Shown: positions 2,597 to 20,815 of the stretch, in pieces | Numbering within the stretch: position 1 is the first letter of the stretch | Layout: every line of letters starts with the position of its first letter | Assembly (NCBI GenBank): GCA_036280475.1 | Contig: DASUQP010000106.1 | Span: forward strand, 1-54,909 | DNA: 54,909 bases | Source: Methyloceanibacter sp. | GTDB lineage: Bacteria; Pseudomonadota; Alphaproteobacteria; Rhizobiales; Methyloligellaceae | Reading direction: 5' to 3' | Made by a program: the position numbers and the translations under genes | Notes under the pieces: model-generated | The model's input: the letters and a program-made list of their open reading frames with translations, nothing else | Database searches by the model: none | What the model was told of the DNA's origin: nothing

Positions 2597-4381
2597 ATGA
2601 GCGACTTCGGACTCGATCTTGCGGTCATCGGCAATTGCCACACGGCCGCTTTGCTCGAACCCACATCGCGTCTTGTCTGGTGGTGCTATCCGCGTTTCGA
2701 CGGTGACCCCGTCTTTTCGCGTCTTCTCGCCGGCGACGATGAAAAGGGCTTTTGCGACGTCGTGCTCGAAAACATGGTGGACTTTTCGTCCGGCTACGAG
2801 CGCAACACGGCGATCGTTTCCACCGTCCTCACCGACGCGCAAGGCGCAGCCGTCAAGATCACCGATTTCGCGCCGCGCTTTCGCCAATACGGCCGGGTTT
2901 TCCGTCCTGCCCAACTCATTCGCATCATCGAGCCGATCACCGGACTGCCACGAATCGCCATTCGCGTGCGTCCAACCAGCGACTACGGCAAACCAATCGA
3001 GACCAGCGCGTTGCGCAGCAGCCATATCAGCTATCAGGGCAAGAACGCGGCGATCAGGCTCACCACCGACGGTCCCCTGTCCTACATCGATCAGGAGTCG
3101 CCGTTCGCTCTGACCAAACCCATTCACATGGTCCTCGGGCCTGACGAGCCTTTCGCCGAGGACATTGCCACGACGTGCCGCGAGTTTGCCGATCGCACGC
3201 ACGACTTCTGGATGGATTGGGTCCGCCGCCTCTCCATCGCTTACGATTGGCAAGACCCCATTATCCGCTCCGCAATCACGCTCAAACTCTCCAATTTCGA
3301 GGAGACCGGCGCCATCGTCGCGGCGCTGACGACGTCCATTCCGGAAGCCTCGGGCGCCGGGCGCAACTGGGATTACCGCTACTGTTGGCTTCGAGACGCC
3401 TATTTCGTGGTGAAGGCGCTCAATCGCCTCGGCGCCACCGAAACGATGGAAAGTTTCATTTCCTTCATTCTCGGCATCGCGGCGCAGGATCCCTTGCGGC
3501 CCGTCTACGGCATCGTGCCGACCGAACCTCTCGACGAGGTCATCGCGCCGAGCCTGAAGGGCTATCGCAGCGACGGGCCGGTCCGCATCGGCAACGCCGC
3601 GGCGTTACAGCATCAAAACGATGCCTTCGGCAGCATTGTGCTCGCGGCCATGCCGATGTTTTTTGACCGGCGCTTGCCCCGGCCCGGCAACGAAGGTCTG
3701 TTCCATTTTCTCGAGTCTCTCGGTTCGAGGGCAGCCGAGGCAGCATTCACTCCCGACGCCGGCATCTGGGAATATCGCAGCCGCGCGCACGTGCATACTT
3801 ACTCGGCGGCAATGTGCTGGGCGGCGGCGAGCCGGCTTGCGGCGATTGCGGCCCATTTGGGCTTGATCGACCGCGCTACCCATTGGGCCGATACGGCGAG
3901 CAAGATTCAGGACGCTCTGCTGGAGCAGGCTTGGAACGAGAAGCGACAGGCCTTTACTTCCGCGTTTGGATCGGAGCATCTCGATGCGAGCGTCCTGCTC
4001 TTGCCGGATATCGGGCTGATCGAACCGACCGATCCGCGTTTCACGCAGACCGTAGCCGCGGTGGAAAAAGACCTGCTCCGCGGCAAACACGTGCTGCGAT
4101 ACGCAAACGACGACGATTTCGGCATGCCTGAAGTCGCTTTTCTCGCCTGCCGCTATTGGCTCATCGACGCATGGTGGTCGCTGGGGCGGCGCGAGGAGGC
4201 ACGCGAACTGTTCATCGACTCTCTGCGTTATCGCAATAGGTATGGGCTTTTGGCCGAAGACATACACCCCGCCACAGGCGAACTTTGGGGCAATTTTCCC
4301 CAAACCTACTCCATGGCGGGACTTATTCTGACGGCGATGCGGCTGTCCCGGAGTTGGGAGGATCGCTATTGGCGCGGCTAG
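2597..4381 (+). CDS. Glycoside hydrolase family 15 (trehalase/glucoamylase-like)
   Basis: IGNCHTAAL, GAIVAALTTSIPE, RNWDYRYCWLRDA and WGNFPQTYS motifs. Confidence 0.92.
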   Translation: MSDFGLDLAVIGNCHTAALLEPTSRLVWWCYPRFDGDPVFSRLLAGDDEKGFCDVVLENMVDFSSGYERNTAIVSTVLTDAQGAAVKITDFAPRFRQYGRVFRPAQLIRIIEPITGLPRIAIRVRPTSDYGKPIETSALRSSHISYQGKNAAIRLTTDGPLSYIDQESPFALTKPIHMVLGPDEPFAEDIATTCREFADRTHDFWMDWVRRLSIAYDWQDPIIRSAITLKLSNFEETGAIVAALTTSIPEASGAGRNWDYRYCWLRDAYFVVKALNRLGATETMESFISFILGIAAQDPLRPVYGIVPTEPLDEVIAPSLKGYRSDGPVRIGNAAALQHQNDAFGSIVLAAMPMFFDRRLPRPGNEGLFHFLESLGSRAAEAAFTPDAGIWEYRSRAHVHTYSAAMCWAAASRLAAIAAHLGLIDRATHWADTASKIQDALLEQAWNEKRQAFTSAFGSEHLDASVLLLPDIGLIEPTDPRFTQTVAAVEKDLLRGKHVLRYANDDDFGMPEVAFLACRYWLIDAWWSLGRREEARELFIDSLRYRNRYGLLAEDIHPATGELWGNFPQTYSMAGLILTAMRLSRSWEDRYWRG

Positions 4382-5832
4382 TTCTCGTTTCCAACCGCAC
4401 GGGCCTTCCACAGGGCGACGGCACGCAGCGTGCCGGCGGGCTCGAAGTCGCGCTTGCGCCGATTCTCACAGGGATTTCAACGCTTTGGTTCGGCTGGAGT
4501 GGCAAGGTCGTCCCGCCCGAAAAGGTCAGGACCGAGACGGTCGATCGCAACGATGCAACCTATGTCGTCACCGACCTGGCCCAGGACGACTACGAAGAAT
4601 ACTACAATGGATTTGCCAACCGCGTTCTGTGGCCAGTTTTGCATTACCACATCGATCTGACCGAATTCACGCGGCGCGACCTCAGCGGCTATTTTCGCGT
4701 GAACCGCCATTTCGCCAACGAGCTCTCCAAAATTCTCCAACCGGACGATCTTGTGTGGGTCCACGACTATCATTTGATCCCAATTGCCGAGGAGCTGCGG
4801 CAGCGGGGACACGACAACGCGCTCGGATTTTTCCTTCACGTGCCGTTTCCCGCGCCAGAGGTGATGACGGTGCTTCCCAATCATGAGCAGCTGCTTCCGC
4901 TCCTTCTGCAATACGACCTCGTCGGCCTCCAAACGGAAACCGACGTCGGAAACTTTGTGCGCTACCTCATCGCCGAGCGTCGCGGTTCGGACCGCAGAGT
5001 CATCGAGGCAACTGGCGGTCAATTCCTGACCGGCGGTGAATTCGCGTTCTCCTCGCGCGGCCGCCAGACGAGAATCGGCAGTTTTCCCGTCGGCATTGAT
5101 GGCGCGGAGTTCGAGCGGCTCGCCCGTCGCGCTGTGAAGTCGACTTTCGTGCGTGACGTGGTCGAGAGCCTCAGCGCGCGCGCGCTTTTGATCGGCGTCG
5201 ATCGTCTCGATTACTCGAAGGGTCTGGTTCAGCGGATGGATGCGATCGAACGATTTCTCGACATGTATCCCGCATGGCGCAACAAGATCACTTACCTCCA
5301 GATTGCCCCGAAGAGCCGATCCGAGATTCCCACTTATGCGGAGCTCGAGCAGGCGGTCGGGGCAGCGGTCGGGCGGATCAACGGCAGGTATGGCGAGGTC
5401 GCCTGGACACCCATTCGCTACCTCAACCGCGCGTTCAGTCGTTCGAACCTGGCAGGATTATACCGCTCGGCGCGCGTCGCCATCGTCACGCCGCTCCGCG
5501 ATGGCATGAACCTCGTGGCGAAAGAATATATCGCGGCGCAGGACACCGAGGATCCGGGTGTGCTCGTCCTTTCCCGCTTCGCCGGAGCTGCGGTCGAATG
5601 CGAGGCTGCGGTGCTCGTCAATCCCTACGATCCGGAATCGGTGGCTCGCGCCATTGCCCAGGCGCTCGACATGGCTTTGCCCGAACGCCGCAAGCGCCAC
5701 GAGGCAAACCTGGCGGCGCTCGCACGCAATCGCCACAATGAATGGAGCACGCGCTTCCTACAATCGCTTCGGAACGCACCCAAGGCCGCGAATCGCCCCG
5801 CGGCGGCCGGCCGCCTGGATGCGCTGTTCTAA
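4369..5832 (+). CDS. otsA: Trehalose-6-phosphate synthase
   Basis: TTG start [10 protein letters not shown] with GGAGG RBS; [42 protein letters not shown]. Confidence 0.95.
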
Positions 5833-5838
5833 TTCCAG

Positions 5839-7992
5839 TCAGTCGTCGGACTCGGTCTTGACATCGACGTGACCCCAAGTCCTGACGACCTCCAACGCCG
5901 TTCGCTCGCCGTAGCGCCGGATCAGGACGTCGACGGCGCCCTCTCCCGCCCTCAACCCTCTCAGCGAGACCTCGTCCAGAAACTTTGGAAGCGTCGGCTT
6001 GACGAAGCGGATCTCGCGCTTCCAGGGATCCTGGACGATGCCCAAGCTCGCCTGAAGCAGAGCGAAGAACGAACCCGCAGACCAGGCCTGCGGCGCGCAG
6101 GCGACCGGGTAGCTCGTCGGTCCGCGGCCAGCCAGACGCGGAAAGCCGCAGAAGAGCTCCGGCAGTCGCTGCAAATCGAGGTAGCTCGCAGCCTCGAAAA
6201 GAGCGCGAAAAATCCTCGTCACTTCGCCCTTGGCGCGGTAGCGCGCGAACCCGAGCGCGATCAGCGCGTTGTCGTGAGGCCAGACCGAGCCGTTGTGATA
6301 GGACATTGGGTTGTACCGCGGCTCGGCGGTGGATATCGTCCTGATCCCCCAGCCGGAAAAACTGTCGGGCTGCATCAGTCCCGAGGCTACCTTCCGCGCC
6401 CTGTCCGGTCTGGCGATACCGCTCAACAGAACTTGACCGGCGTTGGAGGAACGTATGCGGCACGGCACCTTGTCGCCGTCGAGCGCCAAGGCGTAAGTGC
6501 CGAGTTCCCCGCACCAGAAAGAGTCTTCGAAACGTTCGGCAAGAAGGTCGGCCTCGCTTCCCAGCTGCCGAGCCCGGTCCGGGAGATTCAGGGTTTCGGC
6601 GCACCAGGCGGCAAGCCTCTTGGCGGCATAAACATAGCCTTGAACCTCTGCCACGGCGATCGGCCCTGTCGCGAGCCGGCCATCGGAGTGGAAAATCGAG
6701 TCCTGAGAATCCTTCCAACCCTGATTGATCAGCCCCTTGTCGGTCTGCCGGTCATATTCCACGAAGCCGTCACGATCCGGATCGCCAGGCCCATCGATCC
6801 ATGCGAGCGCCCTTTCGATCGCGGGCCAGAGCTCTTGCAGCGTGGCGACATCGCCGGTCGACTGCACATATTGTCCCGCCAGCAAGACGAAGAGCGGCGT
6901 GGAATCGACGCTGCCATAGTAGCGGCCGAAGGGCACCTCCTTCAGATTGGCCATCTCGCCCGCGCGCATCTCGTGCAGAATCTTGCCGGGCGCGGCGTCG
7001 GAAGCGGCATCGAACGCGGTTGCTTGCGTGGCAGCCAACCGCCTCAGCACGGCAATCGGAATGCGGCGGTCGAGCCACAGGCATTGAAGCGCGGTGATCA
7101 GTCCATCGCGGCCGAAAGTGGTCGAAAACCAAGGGATGCCGGCATAAGGGTAATACCCTTCCGGCGTTTCGGTGAGCAGCATTGCGAGGTCGGCCGTCGC
7201 CCGCCGGAGCATCTCGTTGAAACTGTGATTTGAGGTGTGGATTTTCGTTTCCACCCTCATCAGCTTCTTTCGCTCAAGATGCGCGCGCCGCATGGTTCTC
7301 AAGAACAGCGTCTCTTCGGAGCGCGAGTCGCAGGACACTCGCGTGTAGAGAGACGCGACGCTGTGCGGGCTCAGATCAAGCCGGTAGGACGCACAATCTT
7401 CGGTCAGCGTCAAAGGCGTGGGGTCGAAGGCGATATGGGTCCGCCGCATCACCCCGTCCCGGCCCGCATAAGTCAGAGTCGCGCGGGTTTCGCTGATTTC
7501 GGCGCGCTCGACCCCGCGCCGGCGCCGAACGACGCCCCGGACTTCGAAAACATCGGCGAAGTCGCTCTCGAAGGCGAGCGACAGCAGGAGCTGAACCGAA
7601 TCCGCTCCATAATTGTGCAAGGTCAGGCGCTGGTGAAGCGTCTCACGCGAGATGAACAACGTGCGCGCGATGTGCAGCAGGTTCTTGGACAGAACCACGC
7701 TGTCGCGATCGCGGAAATCGGGATTGGTCAGGTCGACTCTTAAGACACAATTGTCGTTCGATAGCGTCGATCCGAGAAGGAGAGGCGCGACGCCATTGAT
7801 GAGCAACTCAAAGCGGGAAAGGTAGCGCGTGTCGCGGTAAAACAGGCCGTCGGGTCCACCGACTGAGACCCCCACGTCGCCATGGCTGTCGAGGACGAGG
7901 AAACTGTCGTCCTGCTTCATCGTGTAGCGCGGTCGCGCGGACGACGATGTGACCGCAATGTCGAACAGCGGTTCCGGCTTAGGCTCGAGCAC
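5839..7992 (-). CDS. Amylo-alpha-1,6-glucosidase / glycogen debranching-like enzyme
   Basis: AGIPWFSTTFGRDG, PGKILHE, YYGSVDSTPL, NQGWKDS, YHNGSVWPHD, ACAPQAW. Confidence 0.9.
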   Translation of the reverse strand: MLEPKPEPLFDIAVTSSSARPRYTMKQDDSFLVLDSHGDVGVSVGGPDGLFYRDTRYLSRFELLINGVAPLLLGSTLSNDNCVLRVDLTNPDFRDRDSVVLSKNLLHIARTLFISRETLHQRLTLHNYGADSVQLLLSLAFESDFADVFEVRGVVRRRRGVERAEISETRATLTYAGRDGVMRRTHIAFDPTPLTLTEDCASYRLDLSPHSVASLYTRVSCDSRSEETLFLRTMRRAHLERKKLMRVETKIHTSNHSFNEMLRRATADLAMLLTETPEGYYPYAGIPWFSTTFGRDGLITALQCLWLDRRIPIAVLRRLAATQATAFDAASDAAPGKILHEMRAGEMANLKEVPFGRYYGSVDSTPLFVLLAGQYVQSTGDVATLQELWPAIERALAWIDGPGDPDRDGFVEYDRQTDKGLINQGWKDSQDSIFHSDGRLATGPIAVAEVQGYVYAAKRLAAWCAETLNLPDRARQLGSEADLLAERFEDSFWCGELGTYALALDGDKVPCRIRSSNAGQVLLSGIARPDRARKVASGLMQPDSFSGWGIRTISTAEPRYNPMSYHNGSVWPHDNALIALGFARYRAKGEVTRIFRALFEAASYLDLQRLPELFCGFPRLAGRGPTSYPVACAPQAWSAGSFFALLQASLGIVQDPWKREIRFVKPTLPKFLDEVSLRGLRAGEGAVDVLIRRYGERTALEVVRTWGHVDVKTESDD

Positions 7993-19905: not shown

Positions 19906-19930
19906 GGAACAGGATCCCGGGTCGCGCGTT
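19906..19930 (+). promoter_or_regulatory. EcfG-type promoter
   Basis: GGAAC-N16-CGTT. Confidence 0.85.
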
Positions 19931-19953: not shown

Positions 19954-20154
19954 ATGAACACGCACGTCACTGACGAAGACGTTTCAGTTGGTCCACCCAA
20001 GCCCAAGGACCGAAGGGTTCTGATGACGCTGATCGGAACCGTGGCCGTGATCGTTCTTGCGCTGATAGCATTCGTCGCCTTGAGCGACTTCCCTGGCCCG
20101 TCCGAAGGCAGCGCAGACAAGGCGACGGCGCCTGCGGAGGACGTCAGGCGCTAG
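19954..20154 (+). CDS. Small single-TM protein
   Basis: AAGGAG RBS; one hydrophobic helix. Confidence 0.75.
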   Translation: MNTHVTDEDVSVGPPKPKDRRVLMTLIGTVAVIVLALIAFVALSDFPGPSEGSADKATAPAEDVRR

Positions 20155-20178
20155 GAACATCTGATAAGGTCGCGAGTT
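20154..20178 (+). promoter_or_regulatory. EcfG-type promoter (near consensus)
   Basis: GGAAC-N16-AGTT. Confidence 0.7.
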
Positions 20179-20213
20179 GGAGCCGCGTGGAGGGGTTTGC
20201 AAAGGAGATATCA

Positions 20214-20447
20214 ATGGCCCGCCACATCGTAATGGACCCCTCCGGTCACTCGACCTTCGAGTTCAATCCGGGCAGCCTGGCCGATCTTGCCAAGGCCGAA
20301 CGCCGCTTCAACAAGCTTTTGAACAAGGGATACGTGCCCGCCTATCAACGCGGCGAAGGCACGCATCGTGTTCCGCCGCAAGAGAATAGGTCTTTCGATC
20401 CGTCGGCCGAGGAGACCATCTTCATTCCGGCGCTTCGGGGCGGCTAA
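20214..20447 (+). CDS. 77-aa protein ending in LRGG; putative ubiquitin-like (beta-grasp) protein
   Basis: AAAGGAGA RBS; C-terminus FDPSAEETIFIPALRGG-stop. The CDS is solid; the fold is inferred. Confidence 0.8.
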   Translation: MARHIVMDPSGHSTFEFNPGSLADLAKAERRFNKLLNKGYVPAYQRGEGTHRVPPQENRSFDPSAEETIFIPALRGG

Positions 20448-20815
20448 TGAACATGGTTTGGCTGATGGTTGCTATTGTCGTTCTTAGCGGCCTCGCCATG
20501 CTCGTTTGTTCCATCCGCCAGCGCATGGCAGAGACAAAAGGCCTGACGCTTCTTGTGAGCAATCTCAGTGAGGAGCAGCGGCGTCAGTACGAAGCCTTTG
20601 GCTATTTCGACGCGATCGGATCCATCACGGGCAAGCGCTACCGGATCCATCACGGCAATTCGCGGAACGTCGTCCAGCTGGGCTCCGGCAACTTGCGTTC
20701 CGGCCGATGCTTTGCGCCGCGAGGCGATCTCGTTCCGGGAGATTGCATGCTTGCGCAAAAGATCGCGATTGAGAATTACGAAGCGGAAGTGCTCGCCAAA
20801 GCGCTACCTTTTTGA
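20447..20815 (+). CDS. Hypothetical protein with N-terminal TM helix, coupled to the LRGG protein
   Basis: TAATG stop/start overlap; YFDAIGSITGKRYRI...GRCFAP...GDCMLAQKIAIE. Confidence 0.8.
   Translation: MNMVWLMVAIVVLSGLAMLVCSIRQRMAETKGLTLLVSNLSEEQRRQYEAFGYFDAIGSITGKRYRIHHGNSRNVVQLGSGNLRSGRCFAPRGDLVPGDCMLAQKIAIENYEAEVLAKALPF

Follow-up and report, generated by a model that had tools for sequence, protein, structure and literature searches.

Within the window, by which we mean the whole 54,909-nucleotide stretch of Methyloceanibacter sp. DNA that was analysed (contig C106, positions 1-54909), two overlapping genes, here called A and B, lie on the forward strand. Gene A (20214..20447) encodes a protein of 77 amino acids for which alignment, an AF2 model and fold searches predict a beta-grasp of ubiquitin-like topology with a free C-terminal Gly-Gly. 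Its translation ends in EETIFIPALRGG immediately before the stop codon, the last residues being PALRGG. The sequence AAGGAG (20202..20207, forward strand) forms a ribosome binding site six nucleotides ahead of the ATG, and further upstream on the same strand is an EcfG-type promoter-like site, GGAAC-N16-AGTT (20154..20178), with GGAAC at 20154-20158 and AGTT at 20175-20178. Gene B (20447..20815) encodes 122 amino acids, which alignments, the AF2 model and VIA-align divide into an N-terminal hydrophobic helix and a core of about 95 residues; its translation has a hydrophobic N-terminus followed by NVVQL...GRCFAP...GDCMLAQK. The two genes share a TAATG stop/start overlap (20445..20449, forward strand), an arrangement that makes their translational coupling likely. 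Each is present in one copy in its own genome, which is 84% complete. These features (promoter, ribosome binding site, a 77-residue reading frame ending in Gly-Gly, TAATG overlap, and a 122-residue reading frame with a hydrophobic N-terminus) had been listed in an initial annotation of this DNA, and all are present in the sequence.

A 66-amino-acid reading frame with a single transmembrane segment (19954-20154) precedes the pair. It had no family match in Pfam or other family libraries. A perfect GGAAC-N16-CGTT stands in front of it at 19906, and its stop codon abuts the -35 box of the gene A promoter.

Gene A encodes a predicted divergent beta-grasp protein with a conserved Gly-Gly end

We found 43 close homologues of A and 1045 clusters of homologues at 50% identity. 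The protein had no significant match in Pfam, NCBIfam, PHROGs, PADLOC or PDB sequences, and the Pfam families of ubiquitin, ThiS, MoaD and Urm1 are absent both for A and from the 25 highest-ranking families found for 90 relatives. Its Atlas matches are unnamed clusters, mostly actinobacterial and viral, at 0.92; the nearest cluster that bears a family name is ThiS at 0.78, which is a lead only.

G76 and G77 are invariant in 41 aligned sequences; across 90 diverse ones their conservation is 90% or higher, and the tail there reads F-x-P-x-L-x-G-G. The protein ends in Gly-Gly in 42 of 43 close homologues and in 102 of 104 A reading frames from 109 loci, most of which were retrieved together with B, so that Gly-Gly was not a selection criterion. 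Among the best 150 distant representatives 110 end in Gly-Gly and five in Ala-Gly; of the remaining 35, most appear to be frameshifted. By comparison, 26 of 3194 long reading frames in the Methyloceanibacter genome (0.8%) end in this way. Exceptions include the homologue in virus Rctr197k, which ends in IPG, and one copy on viral contig L107, which ends in GGA. The Gly-Gly end that had attracted attention in the single sequence is thus conserved. The ubiquitin-like LRGG is not a family feature, since the arginine varies and only L-x-G-G is conserved.

Homologues in large phages are longer, at 117-142 amino acids (L203 7821-8249; L204 7845-8207; L222 2435-2788). By eye, an N-terminal hairpin-helix unit seems to be repeated in the Rctr197k copy.

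The AF2 model of A (pLDDT 92) has the element order E-E-H-E-(E)-E, that of a beta-grasp. Foldseek returned matches with E-values of 0.05-0.2 and TMq of 0.28-0.44. All 48 rows shown are beta-grasp-containing proteins (ubiquitin, ISG15, RBD, PB1), a count inflated by redundant ubiquitin entries. VIA ranked protein L first (Z 5.2-5.5; for the top match Z 5.5, rmsd 3.0 over 57 residues), followed by the Ddi1 UBL domain (4.7), MoaD (3.9), BubA (3.8) and ThiS (3.7). Both lists consist mainly of beta-grasp proteins matched over residues 1-77, although the fold scores for A, like those for B, all fall under the tools' own reliability marks. The beta-grasp topology proposed at the outset is therefore borne out in the predicted model and in both lists, whereas the proposed likeness to ubiquitin is not, the best structural matches being simple beta-grasps of the protein L/G B1 type. 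Because protein L leads the list and the scores are modest, we regard A as a probable simple, divergent beta-grasp outside the ubiquitin family.

Gene B has an invariant cysteine and a variable N-terminus

Gene B has 145 close homologues. It had no significant match in Pfam, NCBIfam, PHROGs, PADLOC or PDB sequences, and its Atlas matches are unnamed clusters only, under 0.9. Neither Cys88 nor Asp99 varies among the 76 close and 25 diverse sequences compared. The cysteine is present in all 120 close matches listed, in all 80 metagenome loci and in all 53 long forms (49 by pattern and four by eye), and hence was kept in every set counted. Loci were searched with the stretch Asp-x-Met-Leu-Ala-Gln-Lys, so the conservation of that stretch among them is selected; Cys88 lies outside the pattern. 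Lys105 is at least 90% conserved.

The N-terminus behaves differently from the core. A transmembrane-like segment is found in 64 of 110 close matches and six of 53 long forms, and the long N-termini fall into 26 clusters among 49. The membrane anchor is consequently a local, clade-specific trait. The initial description of B as membrane-anchored holds for the hydrophobic N-terminus of the window copy but not for the family as a whole. On these counts we reject a family-wide role in membrane or lipid conjugation, and the associated idea of lipid conjugation has no support. Some phage copies carry low-complexity N-termini rich in Thr, Trp and Asn (L107 5689-6282; L204 8494-9270; L203 8267-9073). 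Intact A-B or B-E1 fusions were absent among the 53 long forms, which is weak evidence by the tool's own note; one of these forms is a frameshift-like A-B hybrid lacking Gly-Gly.

In the AF2 model (pLDDT 90) B consists of two helices, four strands and two further helices, with a predicted alpha-beta4-alpha core. Cys88 is placed at the end of the fourth and last strand, 11 residues before the invariant Asp99, which opens the following helix. Foldseek gave no match for B in the PDB. In VIA, RWD, UEV and UBC domains occupy seven of the top eight rows (best Z 4.7; rmsd 3.1-4.0 over 84-101 residues), the best matches being catalytically dead RWD domains. We take about 26 of the 50 rows to belong to these domains, 15 of them by title. 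True E2s score about Z 3.0, and the diverged E2 BubB (9eav_D) scores Z 2.7 with an rmsd of 4.1 over 71 residues; the unrelated CV_2116 reaches Z 4.2 and YkuJ scores similarly, and by the mark used in VIA a Z below 8 may reflect a common arrangement.

The position of the cysteine can be set beside that of the nucleophile in BubB. By eye, the Prok-E2_E/BubB family has an S-R-H serine followed 11-14 residues later by the Asp with which a long helix begins, and in the available text of the Bub study S333 of BubB is catalytic (PMC11601596). Cys88 and S333 are compatible by alignment range offsets (model 114 to chain 361), which is a looser comparison than a residue-level superposition. An HHalign comparison of B with four Prok-E2_E/BubB rows, one of them in the wrong frame, gave a non-significant E-value of 0.49, and Pfam E2 families had no match among the 25 diverse members. 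The close family of B has no conserved His near the cysteine, where BubB and BilB have an invariant one; several distant phage copies read C-x-H. The resemblance to an E2 active-site region noted initially is thus upheld, weakly (Z no higher than 4.7), at the level of an E2-fold-like topology but not by profile similarity or a conserved His. We consider the assignment of an E2 fold to the model of B suggestive.

These scores leave room for another reading, in which A and B would be non-covalent partners: the Gly-Gly tail of A would dock into B, for instance to inhibit it or in an antitoxin-like manner, Cys88 would serve other chemistry, and the E2-like look of B would be only its common alpha-beta4-alpha arrangement. 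The weak Z-scores, the similar values of CV_2116 and YkuJ, the want of profile similarity to E2 families, the highly variable N-termini of B and the lack of a linked E1 or peptidase are all in keeping with it. We nevertheless judge it unlikely. The retention of Gly-Gly from phages to bacteria down to about 10% identity, together with an invariant cysteine in the partner, is a signature of C-terminal chemistry, and two independent fold searches indicate two halves of one pathway.

A and B form a mobile two-gene module

Gene A lies just upstream of B in 78 of 80 genome loci, and the other two loci begin near contig ends. These loci are the best 80 of 472 matches, mostly from Bradyrhizobium and related metagenome-assembled genomes, and are not independent. 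A stands beside B in 23 of 25 viral B loci, some of which are duplicates and one of which (L108) has A after B, and upstream of B in 56 of 80 metagenome loci. Of the 24 metagenome loci that lack A, 16 have less than 700 nucleotides of upstream sequence and eight have at least 700. One viral locus (L081) has A without B, and the viral contig L107 carries three tandem, strongly diverged A-B pairs (3589-6282), each B with its cysteine. The pairing seen in the window therefore recurs, and A-B is a conserved two-gene module.

When all reading frames of the 109 loci were clustered, no recurrent third gene appeared beyond clade synteny. Candidates for a third conserved gene were rejected because the recurrent neighbours trace to one syntenic Bradyrhizobium clade or to related prophages.

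The distribution of the module is patchy. The pair is present in none of 24 genomes of the same genus and in four of 300 genomes of the phylum, one of the four matches being weak, and B is found on 13 Bradyrhizobium plasmids. The module is carried by phages, plasmids and islands.

A search that starts from the structure of B tests the pairing free of sequence selection. With the B model, Foldseek returned two unnamed entries (TMq 0.62-0.67) whose lengths equal those of the two B copies of virus Rctr197k, and a protein of 397 amino acids from the cultured Agrobacterium jumbo phage Atu_ph07 (A0A2L0UZL2; TMq 0.60, probability 0.89, E-value 0.55, 10% identity). We matched the latter to AUZ95012.1 by its length and a C-V-Y...D-x-M motif. 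Directly upstream of AUZ95012.1 in this 490-kb phage is AUZ95013.1, a protein of 117 amino acids that ends in QFAGG. Profile scores against the families are not significant (E 0.06 for AUZ95013.1 as A and 0.13 for AUZ95012.1 as B), so the assignment rests jointly on fold, motif, gene order and the Gly-Gly end. An HMM search of Atu_ph07 with the family profiles likewise gave nothing significant, tblastn of B against cultured phages gave no match, and single-protein viral scans gave self matches only. The two Atu_ph07 genes did not come up in a limited text search of the virion proteomics of this phage. In another large-phage record, LR756511, A ends in VAGG. The Rctr197k pair is flanked by transposase-like genes and two annotated CRISPR arrays (L203 6330-6584 and 13548-15062).

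The frequency of the pair in phages raises the possibility that it serves in counter-defence. In such a role phage A and B would intercept the E1, E2 or JAB proteins of defence systems (CBASS Cap2, Bil, Bub), draining or misdirecting conjugation, and the bacterial copies would be domesticated. Many phage records carry the pair with no E1 (26 of 29, and Atu_ph07), and the patchy occurrence in bacteria, the plasmid copies in Bradyrhizobium and the tandem diverged copies of L107 would also fit. We think a decoy role quite improbable, however, given that three other hosts have only a housekeeping E1, that stable copies under EcfG-type promoters hint at a role in the host, and that PADLOC found no match for the window proteins.

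A putative stress-response promoter in the close clade

The EcfG consensus is GGAAC-N16-CGTT in the portion of the source available to us (PMC7083833). The site ahead of A differs from it by one mismatch and lies 60 nucleotides before the ATG, which places the promoter pattern at a distance suitable for a member of the EcfG regulon. Allowing GGAAC-N17/18-GTT, a site precedes A in 16 of the 77 genome loci, compared with 0.8% of random 160-mers. It is kept in all seven of the closest loci, 54-63 nucleotides before A, and in none of 27 viral loci. The EcfG-type promoter is thus a trait of the close clade and not of the family.

The window as a whole is rich in such sites. Making up 2.3% of the genome's bases, it contains 32 of the 126 GGAAC-N17/18-GTT sites in the genome; for perfect GGAAC-N16/17-CGTT sites the count is 19 of 60. 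By Pfam, the neighbouring genes include PRC-barrel, receiver, histidine-kinase-like, MgtC, AI-2E, DUF1236 and low-affinity iron permease genes, and NepR is encoded elsewhere in the genome, on contig C79. From its sequence, this region is likely to be a general-stress-response island, and the host copy of A-B probably belongs to the EcfG regulon and is switched on in the general stress response. The stress induction suggested by the initial annotation is accordingly favoured by the motif for part of the bacterial family, but the viral copies lack it. Contigs from RNA runs (four metatranscriptome runs from two studies) span A and all or part of B; we do not count them as evidence, since contigs cannot show transcription.

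A variant promoter-like motif, GGAACTTT-(N14-15)-ATT, recurs 59-69 nucleotides upstream of A at other loci (L012, L021, L031, L040, L041, L043, L045, L047, L053, L059, L068 and L076). It is possibly read by another ECF sigma factor.

Candidate sources of an E1

No ThiF-family, ThiS/MoaD-family or Prok-JAB gene lies on contig C106, in agreement with the initial remark that the window has no E1/ThiF, JAB, thiamine or molybdopterin gene, and none emerged as a recurrent neighbour in the 109 loci. Each is found elsewhere in the genome, which has one ThiF-family gene (275 amino acids, contig C206), two ThiS/MoaD-family genes and one Prok-JAB match. From its motifs, we take the ThiF-family protein to be of MoeB type; it lies beside genes that we presume to be dut and coaBC-like. 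A single E1 is also found in three of five other hosts that bear the pair, one of the three being a complete genome. Should A undergo activation, a housekeeping E1 of the host would in several cases be the sole candidate for it. There is a precedent in Thermus thermophilus, where, in the text available, TtuC is the sole E1, activates TtuB, MoaD and ThiS, and is required for TtuB conjugates (PMC3980101).

A phage-encoded cognate E1 was considered and rejected. E1 genes occur in three of 29 phage records, the three largest, and in none of the 13 that are at least 90% complete; genome size confounds the association, and Atu_ph07 has no E1 gene. Each of the three E1 genes is distant from the pair, in a cluster with JAB linkage, and two of these clusters have a predicted Ubl-like gene of their own. 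These separate clusters of JAB-like and ThiF/E1 genes (L210 13835-9719 in G327; L208 12429-8757 in Rctr197k; L209 13760-9617 in LR756511), whose labels we assign from motifs, look like another phage-encoded Ubl system. The Ubl-like gene found in two of the three ends in PKTPFG, and two clusters share an upstream protein of about 300 amino acids that is similar by eye.

The use of a MoeB-type E1 would also be compatible with a sulfur or redox relay like those of Urm1 and SAMP, in which the host MoeB/ThiF would adenylate and thiocarboxylate A, and B would be a cysteine-bearing acceptor and not an E2. A persulfide or acyl-disulfide would then form at Cys88, possibly with self-modification on Lys105, under oxidative stress. 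As far as the available text goes, a Gly-Gly beta-grasp that is activated by an E1 of MoeB type usually serves to carry sulfur (PMC3980101), and Urm1 modifies Ahp1 with no E2, needing the peroxidatic cysteine of Ahp1 and a nearby lysine (PMC7016264). The conservation of Lys105, the EcfG-type promoter and the distant Atlas lead to ThiS point the same way. We rate such a relay as fairly unlikely: clustering of the 109 loci showed no linked gene of a sulfur pathway, the model of B resembles RWD/UBC folds and not rhodanese, peroxiredoxin or MoaE, and the conservation of MLAQK is partly due to the search pattern. Partners of MoaE or rhodanese type, Pup and TAPI-type tail Ubls were dropped, having no fold or neighbourhood support.

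If no E1 took part, B itself might activate or cleave at the Gly-Gly of A as a peptidase or transpeptidase. The lack of a linked E1 and the few A copies with a residue after Gly-Gly (L107) would agree with this. It is nonetheless highly improbable, as A nearly always ends at Gly-Gly and so has no peptide bond left to exchange, B has neither a nucleotide-binding fold nor a conserved His, and no intact A-B fusion is seen among the long B forms.

A possible minimal conjugation module and its relation to known systems

The reading that we place first, while holding it tentatively, is that A and B are a minimal Ubl and E2 conjugation kit that uses a host E1 in trans. A housekeeping E1 of the MoeB/ThiF type would adenylate A in trans; B, predicted to have a minimal E2 fold, would take A over as a thioester on Cys88; and A would finally be joined to an amine of a target chosen by the variable N-terminus of B. 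This reading builds on the reading frames, their linkage, the conservation of Gly-Gly and cysteine, the lack of a linked E1 or peptidase and the single host E1, together with two folds that are both predicted. A broader version, on which we lean a little less, is that an E1-less kit spread by phages was domesticated into the alphaproteobacterial stress response, where it would hijack the E1 of molybdenum cofactor or thiamine synthesis to drive a minimal E2 of about 95 residues and address its targets through a swappable N-terminus of B; Atu_ph07 would be among the phages that carry it.

Were the first reading true, a housekeeping MoeB/ThiF could feed an E2, which bears on the origin of ubiquitination from sulfur transfer. 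Phages would have a protein-tagging tool, and a covalent modifier would be added to the rhizobial general stress response. The broader version, if true, would join the activation of sulfur carriers to protein conjugation by E2s, a link so far missing. Culturable Bradyrhizobium and phage Atu_ph07 offer settings in which A-B can be tested.

We found no published description of the pair, most supplementary tables (Bil/Bub operon lists, EcfG regulon tables) and subscription journals lying outside the literature covered. It is absent from the available portions of the papers compared (PMC1779556, PMC7824862, PMC6102473, PMC11601596, PMC11601603, PMC10557695). In the literature covered, as far as its available text goes, each characterised bacterial Ubl-E2 system comes with a dedicated E1 and serves to defend the host. 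As A-B has neither a linked E1 nor a linked peptidase, it does not belong to Bil, Bub or type II CBASS.

Several systems share individual features with A-B. As in TtuB/TtuC, SAMP/UbaA and Urm1/Uba4 (PMC3980101, PMC7016264; available text), a Gly-Gly beta-grasp would use a single, shared and unlinked E1 of the MoeB/ThiF type. However, in the same sources those systems have no E2 and transfer sulfur to tRNA or cofactors, and unlike ThiS, MoaD and Urm1, A has no profile match to these proteins and has a fixed cysteine-bearing partner. RWD and UEV domains are the best structural matches of B (Z 3.7-4.7), but they are eukaryotic adaptors with no catalytic cysteine, whereas the cysteine of B is invariant.

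Bil is a four-gene antiphage operon of BilA (Ubl), BilB (E2), BilC (JAB) and BilD (E1) in the text available (PMC10557695). As is predicted for A-B, it combines, according to that text, a stand-alone Ubl with a cysteine-bearing E2 and no E3, the E2 being proposed to pick the target. Bil differs in encoding a dedicated E1 and a DUB, and its E2 has a His next to the cysteine; A-B has two genes, no such His in the close family, and is located in phages and in clusters with stress promoters.

Bub (6E/DUF6527) comprises, in the accessible part of its description, the Ubl BubA, the diverged E2 BubB of Prok-E2_E type, the JAB-E1 BubCD, and BubE (PMC11601596). In that description, as is predicted for A-B, the Ubl gene lies directly ahead of a diverged, C-terminally shortened E2 fold and there is no E3. 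A nucleophile just ahead of the long helix would be a further likeness, along with the weak alignment of B to BubB. A-B differs in having no linked E1, JAB or BubE, in having Cys in place of Ser, in keeping A and B as separate genes, in an A that needs no processing, and in being carried by phages; there is also no significant profile similarity between the two. By analogy with these systems, A-B may work like a reduced Bub/Bil core.
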